Source: an uncultured Trueperaceae bacterium
GTDB lineage: Bacteria; Deinococcota; Deinococci; Deinococcales; Trueperaceae
Direction: 5' to 3'
Length of the DNA: 64,000 bases
Assembly: GCA_963799485.1 (NCBI GenBank)
Contig: CAWCXJ010000002.1
Coordinates: forward strand, 23,955-87,954
Part shown: one piece after another, positions 47,373-63,996 of the stretch
Numbering within the stretch: position 1 is the stretch's first letter
How the letters are laid out: every line of letters begins with the position of its first letter
The notes under the pieces: generated by a model
What the model saw: the letters and a program-made list of their open reading frames with translations, nothing else
Databases searched by the model: none
What the model was told of the DNA's origin: nothing
Position numbers and translations under genes: made by a program

Positions 47373-47434
47373 AATGCTGTTATCCTATAAGTTCAACTTG
47401 GATATACTTGAGGGGTGTGCAAGCTCACCTACTA

Positions 47435-48317
47435 ACCTCGGGTGCTAGTCGAACAGAAACAGGATGAGGTTGTGAGCCGCGACTTTGCGGCAGACACTGG
47501 CACGAATGCTCCAAAAAGAGTTGAGCTGTTGCAAGGCAATATTGCGACATCTTGCGAGTGAGGAGAAAACAGCCTCGACAGACTTTCTGGCACGAGCGAA
47601 GAAGTCACACCAGCAGCCGGGTTCTTTGGCGTTTTGCTTGGGTGGGGTGTAGATGCCTAAACCCTGATAGCCTTTGTCGCCGATGCTGCTGTTTAGGTCA
47701 TCGCCAGAAGCGTCCAAGCGACACTTGCCCACGGTGACATCACTTTCATTGGCTGGCACGATGGCAAAACGACAGCTAGCACCCTGACCCGTGCAAACGG
47801 CGTGAAGTTTAAAGCCGTAGAAGCGTTTGGTTGCCCCACCGCGTCCAGAGGTAGCTTCGGTCATCCTTCTTGGTCTTGGGTAGCGAACACCCTTGCAGAT
47901 AGGCAGCGGCTTGGAGTCGACCAGCTACACCCCATCATGCTGAGCAATCAGCATAGCTAAGTCCGCATAGATGCGTTCGAAGTTACGGCTCACTCGGTAA
48001 AAACGTGTGATATGAGGCAGGTCGGGGAACAAAGCGCCGTATTCACGCTGCACCAGCAAGTACCACAAGCCTTGATTTTTCTGCTGAAGTATCTCGCCGA
48101 CCAGAACAATGGTGAGCAACTCGGCGTAGCTGGATTTTTGTTGGCGCTTTTTAGGCAACTTGAAGCGTCCTAAGCGTTCTGAGGCTTGTAGATAGTCGTC
48201 TATCAGGACATATACGATTGTGAAAAGGTCTGTTACATTATGCTTTGAGAGAAGATCAACGGCTCGCATGACCTATCTTCTCTCATCTTTTACCCCTTTT
48301 CTACTAGCACTCGAGGT
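47435..48317 (-). mobile_element. IS982-family element, copy 1 (internal TAG)
   Basis: IR acctcg(a/g)gtgctagt; VDSKPLPIC, FYGFKLH, IGDKGY. Confidence 0.9.
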
Positions 48318-48416
48318 TATTAAATGTAATTGTCTTGTCGGAGGCTTTTGGGGGTGAAGTCGCTTCACGCGACGGCGATGTCTCGCTTTCGGGTAGTAAT
48401 GAACCGAGAACTGCCA

Positions 48417-49667
48417 TGAGGGGATCCCTAAGCTTGGGCCATTTCGGATGTGAGTCTAGGCAGGTGTAGCTTACCTGTTTCGAGGGCTTCTGCCAAGACA
48501 GCTTGGGGTGTCCGGTAGCCAAGTGCTCCGTGAGGTCGGTGTTCGTTATAGTCTTGCCGCCACTTTTCGCTTAGTACACGGGCTTCGGGGGTAGAGGTAA
48601 ATACTTCCAGGTTCAAGAGTTCATCCCGGAAACGGCTGTTGAAGCTTTCACAGTAACCGTACGGCAAAGCCTCGGCGCTGCGCTGAATTTGCCAGGGTGA
48701 GCCGGGGTCGATGTAAAGCGTTTTGATGGTAGCGTCGGTGACGAACTTTTGCAGTGTTTGGGCGATGAACTCGGGGCCGTTATCACAGCGGATGAAGCTG
48801 GGCGCTCCGTGCAGGGTGATAAGACGCTCGAGTTCGGTTACAACGTTATGGCTGGTCATATTGCGCTCGACCTTAATACTTAAACAGGAGCGAGAGAACT
48901 CGTCAATGACCGTTAAGAACTTGAGCCGTCCGCCACTTAAAGTCGTGTCCATGATGAAGTCAAGCGCCCAAACATGATGGGCGTATTCTGGTTTACGCCG
49001 GTGGCAGGCGTTCTCGCCATTACCCAAACGGGTTCGTTTATGCGTCCGGCTTGGCACCTTTAGTCCTTCAGCCCGCCATAGCCGCTGAACTCTCTTACGG
49101 TTCACGTGCCAGTGTTCTTCGTTAAGCTTGGCGGTGATCCGCCGATAGCCGTAACGGGGATGTTCCAAAGCTAGTTCGTGCAAGCGTTTAACCAGCACTT
49201 TGTCCTTCTCTATCCGTAGGGGCTGATATCGCTGCGTACTCCTAACTTGCCCAAGTACTCGGCAGATCCGCCGTTCGCTCACGCCCAGTTCGCGCCGGAC
49301 ATGAGTTACAGCGTCACGGCGCGTTCTGGGCGTTAGAACTTTGTTTTTAGTGCCTCCTTAAGAATATCGTTATCAAGGTCCTTCTCCGCCAGCAGTTTCT
49401 TCAGCCGGGCGTTTTCCTTCTCCAACTCTCTTAACTGCTTAGCATCGCTTTTCCCCATGCCACCGTACTTTTGCCGCCAGCGGTAAAAGCTCCACTCACT
49501 GATACCGAGGGTGCGACACGCCTCCGCCGCCGTCTTTCCCTGGTTAGTTGCCTTCTCGACGTTGCGGAGAATGTCGATGATCTGCTCGGGGGTATGAGTC
49601 TTTCGCATGGCCATTCCTCTCAGCCTGACTCACATTCCGCTTGGCTCAGGTTTCGGGGGTCACGTCA
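48417..49667 (-). mobile_element. IS3-family element, copy 1 (orfA 49333..49614, orfB 48428..49282)
   Basis: TG...CA ends; YGYRRI, WALDF, IRCDNGPEF; same translation as 62746..63996. Confidence 0.95.
48661..48687 (-). mobile_element. 27-nt in-frame micro-insertion type A
   Basis: Removing TTCAGCGCAGCGCCGAGGCTTTGCCGT restores PWQNGYCESFN. Confidence 0.85.
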
Positions 49668-55280: not shown

Positions 55281-55334
55281 GTTCCAATCCTCCTACACTG
55301 CGCCTTGGAGCGCGAGCATGACCAGCTCGGCACT

Positions 55335-55722
55335 GGCCTTGGTCTATAACTTTGGACAGCCGAAGTATACCCTAAGCTGCTAGCCGAGCCAAATCTTCCG
55401 GCAATTGCTTGAGGCGCTCGAAGGTTTCCGGGGTCTCGTAATTGAGTGAACTGTGTAGCCGTTCGCAGTTGTAGTAAATCTCGATAAACTCGAAGGTCGC
55501 AGCGCAAGCCTCAGCGCGGGTCGTAAAGCGTTCCCGAGGATAGACCAACTCTCTCTTGAGCGTCGCCCAGAAGCTTTCGATGACCGCATTGTCGAAGCAG
55601 GCTCCTTTACCCGTGAAGCTTGGCAGCATCCCCCGAGCCGTGAGCTTTGTGCCGTAGAGGTGGCTAGTGTATCGACTACCCCGATCCGACTGGTGGATGA
55701 CACGCCTTTTGCACGCCAGCAA
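55335..55722 (-). mobile_element. IS3-family (IS150-like) 3' fragment
   Basis: HQSDRGSRY...CFDNAVIESFWATLKRE...RLHSSLNY. Confidence 0.85.
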
Positions 55723-57345: not shown

Positions 57346-57355
57346 ATTGCTATTT

Positions 57356-58238
57356 ACCTCGAGTGCTAGTAGAAAAGGGGTAAAAGATGAGAGAAGATAG
57401 GTCATGCGAGCCGTTGATCTTCTCTCAAAGCATAATGTAACAGACCTTTTCACAATCGTATATGTCCTGATAGACGACTATCTACAAGCCTCAGAACGCT
57501 TAGGACGCTTCAAGTTGCCTAAAAAGCGCCAACAAAAATCCAGCTACGCCGAGTTGCTCACCATTGTTCTGGTCGGCGAGATACTTCAGCAGAAAAATCA
57601 AGGCTTGTGGTACTTGCTGGTGCAGCGTGAATACGGCGCTTTGTTCCCCGACCTGCCTCATATCACACGTTTTTACCGAGTGAGCCGTAACTTCGAACGC
57701 ATCTATGCGGACTTAGCTATGCTGATTGCTCAGCATGATGGGGTGTAGCTGGTCGACTCCAAGCCGCTGCCTATCTGCAAGGGTGTTCGCTACCCAAGAC
57801 CAAGAAGGATGACCGAAGCTACCTCTGGACGCGGTGGGGCAACCAAACGCTTCTACGGCTTTAAACTTCACGCCGTTTGCACGGGTCAGGGTGCTAGCTG
57901 TCGTTTTGCCATCGTGCCAGCCAATGAAAGTGATGTCACCGTGGGCAAGTGTCGCTTGGACGCTTCTGGCGATGACCTAAACAGCAGCATCGGCGACAAA
58001 GGCTATCGGGGTTTAGGCATCTACACCCCACCCAAGCAAAACGCCAAAGAACCCGGCTGCTGGTGTGACTTCTTCGCTCGTGCCAGAAAGTCTGTCGAGG
58101 CTGTTTTCTCCTCACTCGCAAGATGTCGCAATATTGCCTTGCAACAGCTCAACTCTTTTTGGAGCATTCGTGCCAGTGTCTGCCGCAAAGTCGCGGCTCA
58201 CAACCTCATCCTGTTTCTGTTCGACTAGCACCCGAGGT
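57356..58238 (+). mobile_element. IS982-family element, copy 2 (same internal TAG)
   Basis: Near-identical inverted copy of 47435..48317. Confidence 0.9.
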
Positions 58239-58280
58239 TATAAAGGAGCTGTTCGAAAGCTAGCCGGAAGTGTCGATGCT

Positions 58281-58313: not shown

Positions 58314-60253
58314 TGTGTATTTCATCATAAATTGACCGCCGAATGGCTCTTACGAAAGTTTTGTGGTAGATGTAGATGCATCGGGACTTGAAACCTAGCG
58401 GTGCAGCTAGCAGCATAGAGGATGCTTGACATCCTTTTCCCAGGTTGCATCGTTGAAATGTTCGAAATCCACGAGCAAGGCTTGGTGCTCACGGCTCGGT
58501 CAAACAAAACGGCGGCGAGGTGCCCAGTATGTGGGGTGACGTCAGCGAAGGTAAGCGGCTACTACCGACGGCATCCTCACGATTTGCCCCTGGCTGGTCA
58601 CCTGACCAAGTTTTGCCTGAAAGTTAAACGGTTCTACTGTTTGAACCATAGCTGTACGAGAACGACGTTTGCGGAATCTTTCGACCCCTGGTTAGCACGT
58701 TACGCCCACAGGAGCGGACGCCTGAGCGATACCCAAAGCTACGTCGCTGTGATGCTGAGTGCCAAAGCCAGTGAAGACCTGCTCGAGAAGTTAGCGATAC
58801 CCGTGAGCCACGACACAGCCCTCAATCTCGTTTGTAAAAGAACCGCAGTGCCACAAGGTACGCCACGGGTGCTAGGCGTCGATGATTTCGCTCTCCGAAA
58901 AAGGGAAACCTATGGCACCTTACTGCTGGACTTAGAGACACACAAGGTGGTGGACGTTTTACCCGACAGAACCTCGGCTACACTTATAAGCTGGCTAAAG
59001 GCCCACCCTGGGATCGAGGTTATCTCGAGAGACCGCTCTCAGGAGTACAAATCCGCTTGTGACGAGGGCGCACCCGAGGCCGTCCAGGTCGCTGACCGCT
59101 GGCATCTACTCAAAAACTTCAGCGATCTCTTGAAGCGTTGGTTCGAGCGCCACAAGAAATACCTCGTTGAGCCTCTGCCAGACGGCGAGTTCGCAACTGG
59201 TGCCGAAATGCCACGCCAGCTGCGCGCCCGCACCAGCTATGAGAGAGCGCTGCAAGCCAAGCTCGAAACGCGCCGCAAACGGCAAACAACCTTTGAAACG
59301 GCTAAGCGTCTGAAAGCGGAGGGTTTTAGCCTGTCCACCATCGCGGCCAAACTCGGCGTCGGCAGGAGTACCTTGAGCCGTTGGTTCGCCCAAGGCACTT
59401 ATGCCAATAAGCAGCGCAGTCGCATCCTCGAAGCCTATCGACCCTATCTCAGACAAAGGTGGGAAGCGGGCATAAGTAACAAGATGCAGCTTTACCGGGA
59501 GATTATGGCGCAAGGATTTACCGGTGCCTACGGACTCGTCTACGCCTACTTCGCCGAGCTAGAAGCTGGGATTGGGCTTTTGAGTGCGAGCAAGAAGCAA
59601 AACGTTCAACGCTATTCGGCGTACGAGGCGACCCGGTTATTCACACGTCAACGAGCTACGTTAAATCGGCACGAGATCAGACGGCTCGAGCAACTCTTCA
59701 AGAATGTGAAGGAGGCTGAGCTTTGCTATGAGCTGGCGCAACGCTTCGTGTTCTTGTTTGAGCAGGAGCAAGCACCCGAGCAGACCCTCGCGGCGTTTGA
59801 CCGTTGGCTCAAAGACACCATAAATAGTGGCATCGACGAACTTGCCCGCTTGGCAAAGGGCTTTAGTAACGACAGGCTCGCTATCGGAGCGGCTTTAACC
59901 CTGCCCTGGAGCAACGGTCCGACGGAAGGTAAAATTACTAGGCTCAAACTTCTGAAGCGGCAAATGTACGGACGAGCCAGCTTTGATCTACTTAGACAAA
60001 AGGTGCTTCTTGCGGCCTGACCACAAAACTTTCGTAAGAGCCAGCTAATTTTACCGAACTTGACCACTGTTTTACCGAATTTGACCACCTCAAGCTGAGG
60101 CGCAAGACACTCTAGCGACAGGCCGACAATAAGGCATGTCTAGAAAGCGAGCGTCAATGCGAAAGGTCAAAGAAATCCTGCGGTTACGCCATGCCTGCGG
60201 ACTGAGTGAGCGGCAGATCGCCCAGAGCTGCAACCTCAGCAAAGGCAGTGTCA
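58314..60253 (+). mobile_element. IS21-family left end and istA 5' fragment, split by ISL3
   Basis: Repeated ttttaccgaaYttgaccac motifs at ~60047-60088; MRKVKEILRL...GLSERQIA. Confidence 0.7.
58345..60042 (+). mobile_element. ISL3-family element A (transposase 58422..60020)
   Basis: Perfect IR ggctcttacgaaagttttgtgg; GVDDFA, RDR, ADRWH, SNGPTEG. Confidence 0.95.
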
Positions 60254-60596: not shown

Positions 60597-62298
60597 GGTT
60601 CTCCCGCGCTTTTGATGAACTTCATTTGTCGAGCGGTTACAACCAACGACATGACACCCCTACCTTGGCTAGCTGATCCCGATGTGCTCGAGTTGAGAAG
60701 CGTCGTTTCAGAACAGAAAAACGTCACCTTGCTCATTCGTTATACCCAAGCCGCCAGCTGCTGCCCAGGCTGTAGGCAGGCATCGCCCCATGTCCATAGT
60801 CGGTACCAGCGTTTCCCCGATGATCTTCCTTGGCAAGGCGTGCGCGTGACACTCAAGCTGAGCGTTCGGAGGTTCTTCTGCCGCAACGCGAGCTGTGAGC
60901 GCCGCATCTTCTGCGAACGCCTCGACCACGTGCTCACCCCCTATGCGCGGCAGACGCTCCGGCTAGTCGAGACCCTACAGGCTATAGGCTTCGGTCTTGG
61001 CGGGGAGGCGGGTACTCGCACTGCCCGCTTGCTCGGCATCTCCAGCAGCGCCGACACGCTTTTGCGTCGTGTCCGGCAAAGCCGCATTCCGGCGGTCGAA
61101 GCGCCGCGGGTGATTGGTGTAGACGATTGGGCCTACCGCAAAGGCGAACGCTACGGCACCTTGATCGTCGACCTTGAGCGGCGCACGCCCATCGAACTTC
61201 TGCCGGACCGCGAAGCCGACACGCTCACAGCGTGGCTTAAAGCTCACCCGAGCATCGAGATCGTCGCGCGCGACCGCGCCTCGGCGTATGCCGACGCCGC
61301 CCACCGCGGTGCCCCCCAGGCGGTGCAAATCGCCGATCGGTGGCATTTGCTGAACAACCTCCAGGAAGCTGCGCAGCGCTTTCTCACCCGGCAGAGCCAG
61401 CTGCTCAAGCAAGCGAGCAACGAAACGCGAGTGGCGCAGGCAGAGGCGATCCCGTTCTCGCGGGGGTCGCTGCTCGCCTCGGCAACGCTAGCGCGGCGTC
61501 AGGAGAACAGAGCTAAACGCGAGCGCCTCTACGAGGAGATGCTGAGTCTGCACCAGCAGGGCAAGTCTCAGTGTCGCATCGCCCGGGAACTGGGCGTGAG
61601 CCGCGGCCGCGTGGTGGCCTACCTGCGGGAAGGCGTTCCCGACGGAGCGCGGGTTCGGCGCGGCAGCATCCTCGATCCCTACCTGCCGTACCTCCACCGC
61701 AGGTGGCTCGAGGGCTGTCGGGGAGCCGTGTCGCTCTTTCGTGAGCTCAAGGCGCGAGGCTACCCGGGCGGTAGCGGCATGGTCAAGCGCTATGGCAAAA
61801 ACTTGCGTAAGCGCCTGGCCGTCATGACGGCCCAAGAGCAGCGCCACTTTCTGGAGGCCACGGCGCAGTTTAAAGCGCCGTCCGTGCGCCGGGCCGCGTG
61901 GTGGCTGTTGGAGGACGAGCAGGAGCTCGGCAAGAAACAGCAGGTGTTTCTGAAAGAGCTGGGACAGCTACGTCCTGAGATCGTGCGGTTCCGGCAGCTT
62001 GGACTCGACTTCAAACGCATGGTGCGAGAACGCGACGCCGATGCGCTTGTTGCCTGGCTTGAGGAAGCAGAGGCGGGCGGCGTGCAGGAGCTGAAGGGTT
62101 TCGCCTTCGGCATTCGGAAAGACCTCGCGGCGGTAACGGCGGCGCTTTGCTTTGAGTGGAGCAACGGCCAGACGGAAGGCCAGATCAACCGCCTGAAGAT
62201 GCTCAAGTGGCAGATGTTCGGACGAGCCAACTTCGATCTGCTGTGAGCTCGGGTGCTGCACGCGGCCTGAGCCGTGTCATCAAAAGCGCGGGAGAACC
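60597..62298 (+). mobile_element. ISL3-family element B (transposase ~60651..62246, premature TGA near end)
   Basis: IR ggttctcccgcgcttttgatga; 8-bp TSD CTATACCT. Confidence 0.95.
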
Positions 62299-62531
62299 CT
62301 ATACCTGGGCCAGTTTGGATGTGAGTCTAGGCGTCTGTAGTTTAGTCGTTTTGAGTGCTTGATCCAATACCTGTTTCGGTGTTTGATAGCCGAGTGCTCC
62401 GTGAGGTCGGTGTTCGTTGTAGTCTCGTCGCCACTGTTCGCTTAGTACACGTGCTTCGAGGGTAGACGTGAACACTTCCAGGTTCAGGAGTTCGTCGCGG
62501 AAACGCCCGTTGAAGCTTTCGCAATAGCCGT

Positions 62532-62558
62532 ACGGCAAAGCCTCGGCGCTGCGCTGAA
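62532..62558 (-). mobile_element. 27-nt in-frame micro-insertion type A in diverged IS3
   Basis: Identical to 48661..48687 although flanking codons differ. Confidence 0.85.
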
Positions 62559-62745
62559 TTTGCCAGGGCGAGCCGGGGTCGATGTAAAGGGTTTCAACGG
62601 TGGCGTCTGCAAGAAACCGCCGTGTGGCTTGGGCGATGAACTCAGGGCCATTGTCGCAGCGGATGAACATGGGCGATCCATGCATGGTGATGAGGCGCTC
62701 GAGTTCACCTCTCACGTCGTAGCTGGTCAGGCTGCGCTCGACCTT

Positions 62746-63996
62746 TGACGTGACCCCCGAAACCTGAGCCAAGCGGAATGTGAGTCAGGCTGAGAGGAAT
62801 GGCCATGCGAAAGACTCATACCCCCGAGCAGATCATCGACATTCTCCGCAACGTCGAGAAGGCAACTAACCAGGGAAAGACGGCGGCGGAGGCGTGTCGC
62901 ACCCTCGGTATCAGTGAGTGGAGCTTTTACCGCTGGCGGCAAAAGTACGGTGGCATGGGGAAAAGCGATGCTAAGCAGTTAAGAGAGTTGGAGAAGGAAA
63001 ACGCCCGGCTGAAGAAACTGCTGGCGGAGAAGGACCTTGATAACGATATTCTTAAGGAGGCACTAAAAACAAAGTTCTAACGCCCAGAACGCGCCGTGAC
63101 GCTGTAACTCATGTCCGGCGCGAACTGGGCGTGAGCGAACGGCGGATCTGCCGAGTACTTGGGCAAGTTAGGAGTACGCAGCGATATCAGCCCCTACGGA
63201 TAGAGAAGGACAAAGTGCTGGTTAAACGCTTGCACGAACTAGCTTTGGAACATCCCCGTTACGGCTATCGGCGGATCACCGCCAAGCTTAACGAAGAACA
63301 CTGGCACGTGAACCGTAAGAGAGTTCAGCGGCTATGGCGGGCTGAAGGACTAAAGGTGCCAAGCCGGACGCATAAACGAACCCGTTTGGGTAATGGCGAG
63401 AACGCCTGCCACCGGCGTAAACCAGAATACGCCCATCATGTTTGGGCGCTTGACTTCATCATGGACACGACTTTAAGTGGCGGACGGCTCAAGTTCTTAA
63501 CGGTCATTGACGAGTTCTCTCGCTCCTGTTTAAGTATTAAGGTCGAGCGCAATATGACCAGCCATAACGTTGTAACCGAACTCGAGCGTCTTATCACCCT
63601 GCACGGAGCGCCCAGCTTCATCCGCTGTGATAACGGCCCCGAGTTCATCGCCCAAACACTGCAAAAGTTCGTCACCGACGCTACCATCAAAACGCTTTAC
63701 ATCGACCCCGGCTCACCCTGGCAAATTCAGCGCAGCGCCGAGGCTTTGCCGTACGGTTACTGTGAAAGCTTCAACAGCCGTTTCCGGGATGAACTCTTGA
63801 ACCTGGAAGTATTTACCTCTACCCCCGAAGCCCGTGTACTAAGCGAAAAGTGGCGGCAAGACTATAACGAACACCGACCTCACGGAGCACTTGGCTACCG
63901 GACACCCCAAGCTGTCTTGGCAGAAGCCCTCGAAACAGGTAAGCTACACCTGCCTAGACTCACATCCGAAATGGCCCAAGCTTAGGGATCCCCTCA
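62746..63996 (+). mobile_element. IS3-family element, copy 2 (orfA 62799..63080, orfB 63131..63985)
   Basis: Inverted twin of 48417..49667. Confidence 0.95.
63726..63752 (+). mobile_element. 27-nt in-frame micro-insertion type A
   Basis: TGG CAA A|TTCAGCGCAGCGCCGAGGCTTTGCCGT|AC GGT TAC. Confidence 0.85.

Follow-up and report, generated by a model that had tools for sequence, protein, structure and literature searches.

A 27-nucleotide DNA unit in transposase genes of an uncultured Trueperaceae bacterium, probably a very small non-autonomous mobile element

Described small repeats and the 27-nucleotide unit

Among described systems, those that the DNA unit treated here seems to resemble most nearly in kind are the small dispersed repeats (SDR) of cyanobacteria, which are mentioned in passages of PMC3116915 and PMC2884548, or the repetitive extragenic palindromes (REPs). 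The unit is 27 nucleotides (nt) long and interrupts the transposase genes of two insertion sequences (IS) of the IS3 family, here termed IS3a and IS3b, in a 64,000-nt stretch of DNA (the window) from an uncultured Trueperaceae bacterium; the window is the end of contig 2 (C2) of the genome under study, G000, which comprises 3.66 Mb in 15 contigs. The SDRs of filamentous cyanobacteria were reportedly described by Elhai et al. in 2008 as sequences of 21-27 nt that are dispersed, tandem or nested, show signs of insertion and also lie inside other mobile elements; they are regarded as mobile, with no known enzyme. The likeness, which is one of kind only, lies in the unit's length of 26-27 nt, its seven sites in G000, its tandem and interrupted forms in a second genome (G023) and its filled and empty sites in a third (G025). 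The host phylum, however, is a different one (a phycobilisome gene is absent from G000, which is not a cyanobacterium), and the features of the unit are empty and filled sites at 99.9% flank identity, an AC target, in-frame read-through and, in G000, confinement to insertion sequences.

REPs are characterised, in the portions of PMC3733652 and PMC3116915 that concern them, as non-autonomous, hairpin-forming repeats of 20-40 base pairs (bp) that sometimes lie in coding regions; each consists of one imperfect palindrome, whose stem measures 5-13 bp, together with a tag (GTAG or CGTC), inverted dimers are common, and the transposases concerned are the REP-associated tyrosine (RAYT, Y1) transposases. 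The unit is likewise short and non-autonomous and encodes no protein, but it has two mini-hairpins clamped by 2-3 bp in place of a long palindrome, lacks GTAG, and shows CGTC only where a C follows it. Y1_Tnp genes are present in four of the five unit-bearing genomes searched, and none was seen to be flanked by the unit. Elements of the IS200/IS605 family make no target duplication, have no terminal inverted repeats, use a short specific target and form hairpins in single-stranded DNA. With that family and its miniature derivatives (noted in a passage of PMC6006769) the unit shares the missing target duplication and the fixed short target, but its target is only AC (GT on the other strand) and its hairpins are far smaller.

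Rickettsia palindromic elements (RPE), according to a passage of PMC10969869, are about 150 bp long, lie in frame in protein-coding genes and are translated. The unit, too, lies in frame and would be translated as an extra peptide segment; unlike the RPE, which are palindromic and occupy housekeeping genes, it has 27 nt and is found in G000 only in transposase genes. The small noncoding repeats (SNR) of Deinococcus radiodurans measure 60-215 bp. A passage of PMC1978522 places these mosaic repeats between genes and speaks of their 'unusual, mosaic structure', and they have in common with the unit the phylum and the modular between-gene arrays seen in G023; they are described as noncoding, however, and a search of the 125 genomes of family f2, taken to be the Deinococcus family, gave no clear copy of the unit. 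[quoted passage not shown] Rfam gave no match at the gathering score in L001:4000-5800, the stretch holding two units, and no published description of the unit or of the phenomenon was found in the literature, subscription journals being mostly outside the coverage.

The unit in the transposase genes of G000

The sequence-only reading of the window had remarked on an identical 27-mer in the two diverged IS3 elements. Three copies without mismatch are indeed present (48662-48688 and 62533-62559 on the minus strand, 63725-63751 on the plus strand), whereas none was expected by chance in 100 shuffles, and our codon alignment reproduces both the residue differences (RSLTSYDVRG against RNMTSHNVVT) and the synonymous differences beside the insert (TCG/TCA on the left, GGC TAT TGC against GGT TAC TGT on the right) to which that reading had drawn attention. 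Over the 444 nt of this alignment IS3a and IS3b are 80.4% identical, and the longest identical run, of 41 nt, spans the 27-mer; the overall identity is 76% for amino acids and about 80% for nucleotides, with 84% and 80% in the ungapped arms. The best register of the insert lies one base to the right of that first proposed and gives TTCAGCGCAGCGCCGAGGCTTTGCCGT; removal of this sequence yields the Q-N-G of all relatives: excised at 63726-63752, it leaves CAA AAC GGT TAC TGT GAA, which reads Q-N-G-Y-C-E.

By its gene content, orfA (HTH) followed by orfB with rve (DDE), and by an NCBIfam transpos_IS3 score of 208.5 bits against a cut-off of 160, IS3a belongs to the IS3 family (host transposase families were named throughout by Pfam and NCBIfam). 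The unit interrupts the nearly invariant Asn codon of the motif PWQNGYCESFN (A^AC, where the caret marks the insertion point) and changes Asn to Tyr. An uninterrupted PW(Q/E)N(G/A) motif is present in 113 of the 120 homologues listed, was missed by the search pattern in six, and is split by an insert only in P0001, the window's own protein. The closest GTDB hit, from an uncultured Truepera metagenome-assembled genome (L033, 76% amino acid identity), reads CCC TGG CAG AAC GGC without insert, the insert is missing in all six further loci examined from the same bacterial family, and relatives read CAG/CAA AAC/AAT GGC at its place. The catalytic residues of IS3 transposases are spaced as D..D(35)E. 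D167 and E212 of IS3a are separated by 44 residues, or by 35 without the nine inserted ones, so that the insert-bearing protein departs from the D(35)E spacing of its family; 74 of its residues are aligned to 65 positions of the Pfam rve_3 profile. Its presence lengthens the gene by a net 27 nt, and five of the six frames of the unit contain no stop codon (checked by hand); it is therefore read through as nine extra residues. In an AlphaFold model the residues 193-208 have a predicted local distance difference test score (pLDDT) below 50 and precede the helix 210-223 that carries Glu212; this region of low confidence would be consistent with a loop and is silent on activity.

That IS3a moved after gaining the insert, as the sequence-only reading had proposed, is borne out by six copies in G000 that are 99.84-100% identical, keep open frames and stand in six different flanks, from which we conclude that the insert-bearing transposase is probably active. 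A contig from an independent run (X1) contains IS3a with no difference and with another left flank; the unit-bearing IS3a occurs with no difference in both X1 and X2, which belong to one study and may represent the source sample, and parts of it are covered by X3 and X4. An insert-free variant of IS3a was not seen in the contigs of X1 and X2. Nor does G000, where the sequence-only reading had suggested looking for one, contain an insert-free copy of the IS3a group, its other IS3-family genes being about 26% identical.

We searched the whole of G000 for the unit, allowing few mismatches and accepting matches at zero to four, and observed it at seven sites, in both orientations and in differing frames. 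All seven lie inside transposase genes, namely those of IS3, IS4, IS1, IS701 and IS21 elements and, twice, of an IS3-like relic. The consensus of the unit family is N-TCAGCG-N-AGCGCCGAGGC-NNN-GCCGT, with 27 nt in most and 26 nt in some copies, and in the 13 distinct 27-nt variants collected the variation is found mainly at position 1 and in two trinucleotide loops (GAA, GCA, GGA, GTA, TTT), most other positions being fixed by the search pattern. Depending on the frame the unit encodes FSEAPRRSR, FSAAPRLDR or IQRSAEALP, and in reverse TASPRRFAE. A conserved peptide as the explanation is ruled out by this reading of the same DNA in three forward frames and in reverse, and the unit is therefore a DNA-level element and not a peptide motif. 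One variant is common to unrelated IS4 and IS701 sites, and in the IS4 relics the unit is identical at 27 of 27 positions where the flanks are only 75-77% identical, the relic on C8 differing from those on C12 and C13 by about 24%. Copies between genes, long forms and separate halves of the unit were all absent from G000, and the idea that the halves of the unit are the ends of a larger G000 element yielded only chance-level matches with one mismatch.

The IS21 site is in the only istA gene of the genome (C11:2635-3461; L006:1350-2693, minus strand). Alignment of the encoded protein with the solved IS5376 IstA (8q4d) shows a nine-residue gap at ...FDNMK..., and the unit lies in the Asp codon (G^AC) of the DNxK motif. 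That codon is now G..CC, or Ala once the unit is removed, and this IstA has probably lost a catalytic residue.

Paralogues without the unit reveal the empty state of several sites. The empty IS1 paralogues read TTCAACAAC^ACTGTT, the empty IS4 paralogues ATCGAG^TGTCTG, and three paralogues of the IS3-like relic GATTTACT^ACAACCG, in each case with no duplication; one of these three lies in the window (Table 1) and matches the site GAGATTTACT^ACAAC that is filled by a 26-nt unit at C13:448568. At all four sites with empty paralogues or copies, target-site duplication is absent. For six sites, those of IS1, IS3, IS21, IS701, the IS3-like relic (site E1) and the IS256 element of G025 described below, the empty state is known or could be deduced, and in every one of them the target is N^AC; it is A^AC in IS3 and G^AC in IS701, where it was taken from an NC^Q motif.

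Relatives of the unit in other genomes and metagenomes

The unit was also sought in 364 genomes of the phylum, with a noise level set by reversed-pattern controls; a match was taken as clear at zero or one mismatch and with several copies, relative to those controls. Clear matches occur only in G000 (13), G023 (9), G025 (7), G337 (1) and, in a variant with a compensatory CG-to-TA change in a stem, G283/G284. All unit-bearing genomes belong to one bacterial family, and within the window's own genus G000 is the only one, the five other genomes of that genus having no clear copy.

Seven copies of a single IS256-family element of G025 contain the unit, in reversed orientation (VVSLG-GRQSLGASLT-LIVTG). 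An eighth copy (L202) is empty and, apart from the site, shows one substitution in about 1140 nt. It retains the GTG codon that is found in six of six outgroup homologues, and no deletion of 27 nt from the filled sequence yields the empty one; both facts argue for a gain of the unit in the filled copies. A ninth copy (L207, C1:3891764-3892375) has lost about 13 nt of the unit between its two similar halves, with a broken frame, and L202, the filled copies and L207 thus make up a natural series of empty, filled and decayed sites.

In G023 the units lie between genes. The 5' module of the unit occurs there in 36 copies, against none for the control, and perfect tandem pairs of units stand upstream of lepA. 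Longer elements have the 5' end NTCAGCGAAGCGCCG and the 3' end GGCG-A/T-AGCCGT around one to several other small repeat modules; of the 29 copies listed, some consist of the ends only and the rest run into inner modules, many of them closing with the 3' module. Linked through one A, these two ends make up the 27-mer, which would be the ends-only form of a modular family. The regions upstream of many genes in G023 (L246-L274; e.g. G023:C102:1750-1960) are mosaics of small modules (GCCCGAACGAAGTGAG, AGCGATAAAGCGATA, AGGGTTCACCCCGAAG and tandem runs of TTGAATAC), and these mosaics are set in a larger palindrome, GGCGAAC...GTTCGCC. A Y1 transposase gene of the same genome (C110:370-726) lies about 1.4 kb from a 5' module at C110:2148-2161.

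A scan of metagenomes gave 34 loci with 37 copies in 26 contexts, the unit being followed by AC in 12 of the contexts, by CC in eight and by other dinucleotides in six. We scanned 24 of the 38 unit-spanning open reading frames of at least 70 residues and found one IS4-type and one IS3-type transposase, the end of a GNAT gene and a lepA leader, the others being without family. In the IS3-type gene (L219) the unit occupies the same (F/Y)Y^N site as at C13:448568 of G000, but as a different variant and with very different flanks, and the two are best read, from these sequences, as putative independent hits on a homologous site.

Table 1. Positions of the unit, its host elements and related features (plain coordinates refer to the window; those with a contig prefix to G000; a caret marks the insertion point)
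Feature	Position	Strand or orientation	Remarks
27-nt unit, variant TTCAGCGCAGCGCCGAGGCTTTGCCGT, in orfB of IS3a copy 2	63726..63752	+	splits Asn codon A^AC; followed by AC
27-nt unit in diverged, truncated IS3b	62532..62558	-	identical; same codon as in IS3a
27-nt unit in IS3a copy 1	48661..48687	-	identical
IS3a copy 2	62746..63996	+	1251 nt; ends TGACGTGACCCCC... and ...GGGGATCCCCTCA
IS3a orfA	62799-63080	+	HTH_Tnp_1
IS3a orfB	63131-63985	+	HTH_21, rve, rve_3; NCBIfam IS3 family
IS3a copy 1	48417..49667	-	1251 nt, 100% identical to copy 2
IS3b	62291..62745	-	C-terminal 152 codons of a diverged IS3 orfB
IS3-like orfB relic	55332..55572 (G000:C2:79286-79526)	-	insert-free paralogue
Unit in IS4-family relics	C8:270821, C12:17502, C13:445741		
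Unit in IS1 relic	C10:22839		
Unit in IS701-family gene	C13:457613	reverse	
Unit in IS21 istA	C11:3035		
Two 26-nt units in decayed IS3-like element	C13:448304, C13:448568	opposite orientations	
IS200-type element, 570 nt	C1:227973-228546, C1:274111-274684, C13:319304-319873, C13:485263-485831, C12:2852-3421		Y1 transposase only

IS3b is cut off exactly at the start of IS3a copy 2 (62745/62746), which suggests that IS3a inserted into it; the remaining half of IS3b is out of sight, as the contig stops 4 nt past IS3a. With ISL3-type genes at 58422-60020 and 60612-62246, the contig end is a nest of insertion sequences, and a 100% identical inverted repeat of 890 nt (47433-48322 and 57351-58240) represents another insertion-sequence pair. 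Repeats of at least 150 nt make up 8.1% of G000, whereas all seven sites of the unit fall in IS DNA. Four of its IS200-type copies are near-identical and one is at 82%, and they often adjoin relics of other insertion sequences. The sequence GTGACGCCAGCGCCGCGGCTTTGCCGT followed by CC, at C9:105126-105152 and C9:122213-122239, has six mismatches to the unit; an IS1-like paralogue is about 150 nt away, and the sequence could be either a unit in decay or a chance match. For the insert-bearing P0001 and its closest insert-free relative, P0061, the longest contig given is 152554 nt in both cases, and the two may share one contig of another assembly.

Origin of the unit and rival explanations

We consider it probable that the 27 nt represent one copy of a DNA unit that is mobile, non-autonomous and very small. 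The interpretation put forward in the sequence-only reading is supported in part, a mobile repeat that extends through the genome and the family having been beyond its view. The unit inserts in either orientation, without target-site duplication and directly 5' of AC; we hypothesize that a trans-acting enzyme would recognise the conserved ends NTCAGCGNAGCGCCG and GGCGNAGCCGT, probably on single-stranded DNA. Each end would carry a GC-clamped mini-hairpin motif with a 3-nt loop, GCGNAGC being named as a DNA 'mini-hairpin' motif in part of PMC13037366. The 27-mer would be the minimal, ends-only form of the longer elements, and the nine-residue loop that it adds would be tolerated by the IS3a transposase. 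Most units of G000 were probably brought in by insertion sequences, as passengers. All seven sites are in IS DNA, G000 has neither a between-gene copy nor a long form, and the five other genomes of the genus are without a clear copy; on the simplest reading, the activity that mobilises the unit is therefore a property of other lineages in the family. The identical units in the IS4 relics and in IS3a and IS3b, on the other hand, look like recent site-specific acquisition, which is not fully reconcilable with passengers.

Several points weigh against a mobile unit of this kind. Its mobility would follow from the comparison of filled and empty sites and not from a new insertion that was directly observed. 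The insertion is not perfectly clean: at the IS256, IS21 and IS1 sites the unit is followed by C in place of the A of the empty relatives, and a mobile piece of 28 nt that swaps out one base is therefore possible. In G025 the empty copy has a private change 3 nt from the site, and the difference between filled and empty copies could in principle be a loss. Folding of the unit as DNA with ViennaRNA gives two 3-bp hairpins that are no stabler than those of shuffles (z 0.30 and 0.65), and the change in G283/G284 is the only compensatory one, under a search pattern that fixed most stem positions. A mobilising enzyme, or an autonomous element with the ends of the unit, was not found when the resident IS200 elements and small GIY-YIG genes were examined: the ends of the 570-nt IS200 element (five copies) are unlike the unit, which speaks against a resident IS200/Y1 source, and no unit modules lie beside the small GIY-YIG genes in five unit-bearing genomes. 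The probable activity of the insert-bearing IS3a transposase is deduced from copy number alone. IS3 elements have terminal inverted repeats TG...CA and make target duplications of 3-5 bp. No target duplication was recognisable at any of the six copies of IS3a (for one of them the right flank amounts to just 4 nt before the contig ends), which is unusual for IS3 and makes the mode of spread less certain. As for trivial origins, an assembly artefact is ruled out by the presence of the unit in several genomes, in metagenome contigs and in the contigs of an independent assembler, and a crude scan of G000 for CRISPR arrays (20-mers, at least four repeats, spacing 45-95) gave none.

For the IS3 pair, we rate it slightly better than an even chance that the unit entered the two elements after their split, either in separate events or through copying, because the absence of any change in the unit contrasts with about 20% divergence in the flanks and the same is repeated in the IS4 relics. 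The unit would then be younger than the split, with either the same preferred and tolerated site hit twice or a short patch copied. In a comparison of synonymous sites, which the sequence-only reading had recommended, none of the ten degenerate conserved codons that overlap the insert differs, against 32 of 103 outside it (P = 0.024). In a codon shuffle a run of at least 41 nt arose in 360 of 20000 trials, and for 27 unchanged bases, if unconstrained and as old as the split, we calculate 0.8^27, or about 0.002. The identity of the insert is moderately, not overwhelmingly, improbable under synonymous-site evolution.

The strongest competitor, which we regard as possible although clearly the less likely course, is a single ancient insertion in the ancestor of IS3a and IS3b, after which the 27 nt were held by selection at the DNA or RNA level or diverged little by chance. 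It concerns the IS3 pair only and is compatible with a mobile unit. Position, orientation and variant are all the same in both elements, the TTCAGCGCAGCGCCGAGGCTTTGCCGT variant occurs nowhere else in G000, and conservation is unusually high in the left flank as well (29 of 30 nt). On the other side, the lack of change in 27 nt must be set against 31% synonymous-codon divergence as well as the overall divergence (P about 0.002 to 0.02), the IS4 relics show the pattern again, and unit copies elsewhere vary in their loop positions; we know of no function that would conserve the nucleotides of the unit. The protein tree (72 rows and 152 columns, the insert having been dropped by the column filter) parts the two elements. 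IS3a groups with the insert-free P0061 (support of 95 in the Shimodaira-Hasegawa-like approximate likelihood ratio test, SH-aLRT) inside a clade of eight (97) that excludes IS3b, while IS3b groups with the insert-free P0065, P0012 and P0013 (81), and the identities are 87% for IS3a and P0061 (C-terminal part), 86% for IS3b and P0065 and 76% for IS3a and IS3b. On this free tree an ancient insertion would require at least two precise losses. Two results leave room for common descent, however: the approximately unbiased (AU) test does not reject a clade of IS3a and IS3b (p 0.452, log-likelihood difference 2.3), and a DNA tree of nine rows, star-like in shape, weakly joins the pair at 37/48. The phylogeny for which the sequence-only reading had called thus separates the elements when left free and tolerates their union when constrained. 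As to the alternatives of that reading, independent site-specific insertion or nucleotide-level selection, a discrete inserted unit, and not a loop that evolved slowly, has emerged, in other families, frames and orientation, and the trees do not choose between the two.

We give a small chance to a reading in which the unit is a parasite or tamer of insertion sequences, a homing-type mini-element aimed at, or kept only at, the catalytic core of DDE transposases. Elements that have diverged would then be struck more than once at the same codon, as in the IS3 pair, in the IS4 trio and at (F/Y)Y^N of two unrelated IS3-family members (G000 C13:448568 and metagenome locus L219), and the active site would be remodelled or crippled. 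Four of the eight transposase sites are at most four residues from what we take to be the catalytic Glu of IS3, IS4 and IS1 and the catalytic Asp of IS21, and a fifth abuts an A-AAA-AAG frameshift heptamer.

Gene conversion in the IS3 pair, by a short recombination patch that passed in either direction between IS3a copy 2 and the adjacent inverted IS3b, strikes us as improbable. The elements lie side by side and inverted, at a distance of about 1.07 kb, the identity runs 9 nt to the left and 5 nt to the right past the unit, and the phylum is known for efficient recombinational repair. The tract, however, would be as short as the sequence-only reading had anticipated: it could span no more than 41 nt, in which a heterology of 27 nt would have to be carried by 9 and 5 nt of homology, and it is bounded by the mismatches TCA/TCG and GGT/GGC; the parallel IS4 relics sit on three different contigs, and the origin of the first copy would be left unexplained.

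It is more doubtful still that the 27-mer is an excision footprint, the two tips left behind by a larger transposable element. In the longer elements of G023 the inner modules vary while the 5' and 3' ends that enclose them are those of the unit, and the make-up of the 27-mer, both ends joined through one A with no target duplication, would fit such an origin. Against it stand the constant length and sequence at unrelated sites, the perfect tandem pairs, the lack of a long form or separate half anywhere in G000 and the lack of a gene in any long form seen.

That the 27 nt are removed or skipped in expression, as a mini-intron or by translational bypass, so that a canonical transposase is made, we find scarcely credible: excision in the right register does restore the canonical Q-N-G exactly, the insert-bearing elements are multi-copy in G000 and G025, and short GC-rich mobile inserts in yeast mitochondria are bypassed in translation, but the length of the unit is divisible by three and the frame in use, also in the reverse orientation, stays open at the seven 27-nt sites read (IS3, IS4, IS1, IS701, IS21 and IS256 of G025), which fits the needs of read-through and would be unnecessary for splicing, excision at three sites would not restore the ancestral codon, and the two junction codons are unlike each other where bypassing requires them to be alike.

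To our knowledge, how mobile DNA of less than 30 nt is moved is an unsolved question, and such elements stand at the bottom of the size range in which DNA is known to move. Here filled and empty sites are clean, the target (AC) and the ends are defined, and there are longer relatives that share those ends, which makes the mechanism of a mobile unit testable. Its sites form a natural map of where six DDE transposase families accept or suffer a nine-residue insertion beside the active site, and an IS3 and an IS256 element have multiplied while carrying it. For annotation, such inserts explain odd 'lineage-specific loops' and the apparent loss of catalytic residues in transposases. Units inside insertion sequences mark the horizontal traffic of those elements between lineages, and if the unit were a parasite or tamer of its hosts, it would represent a new layer of conflict among mobile elements or a host device that damps transposition.

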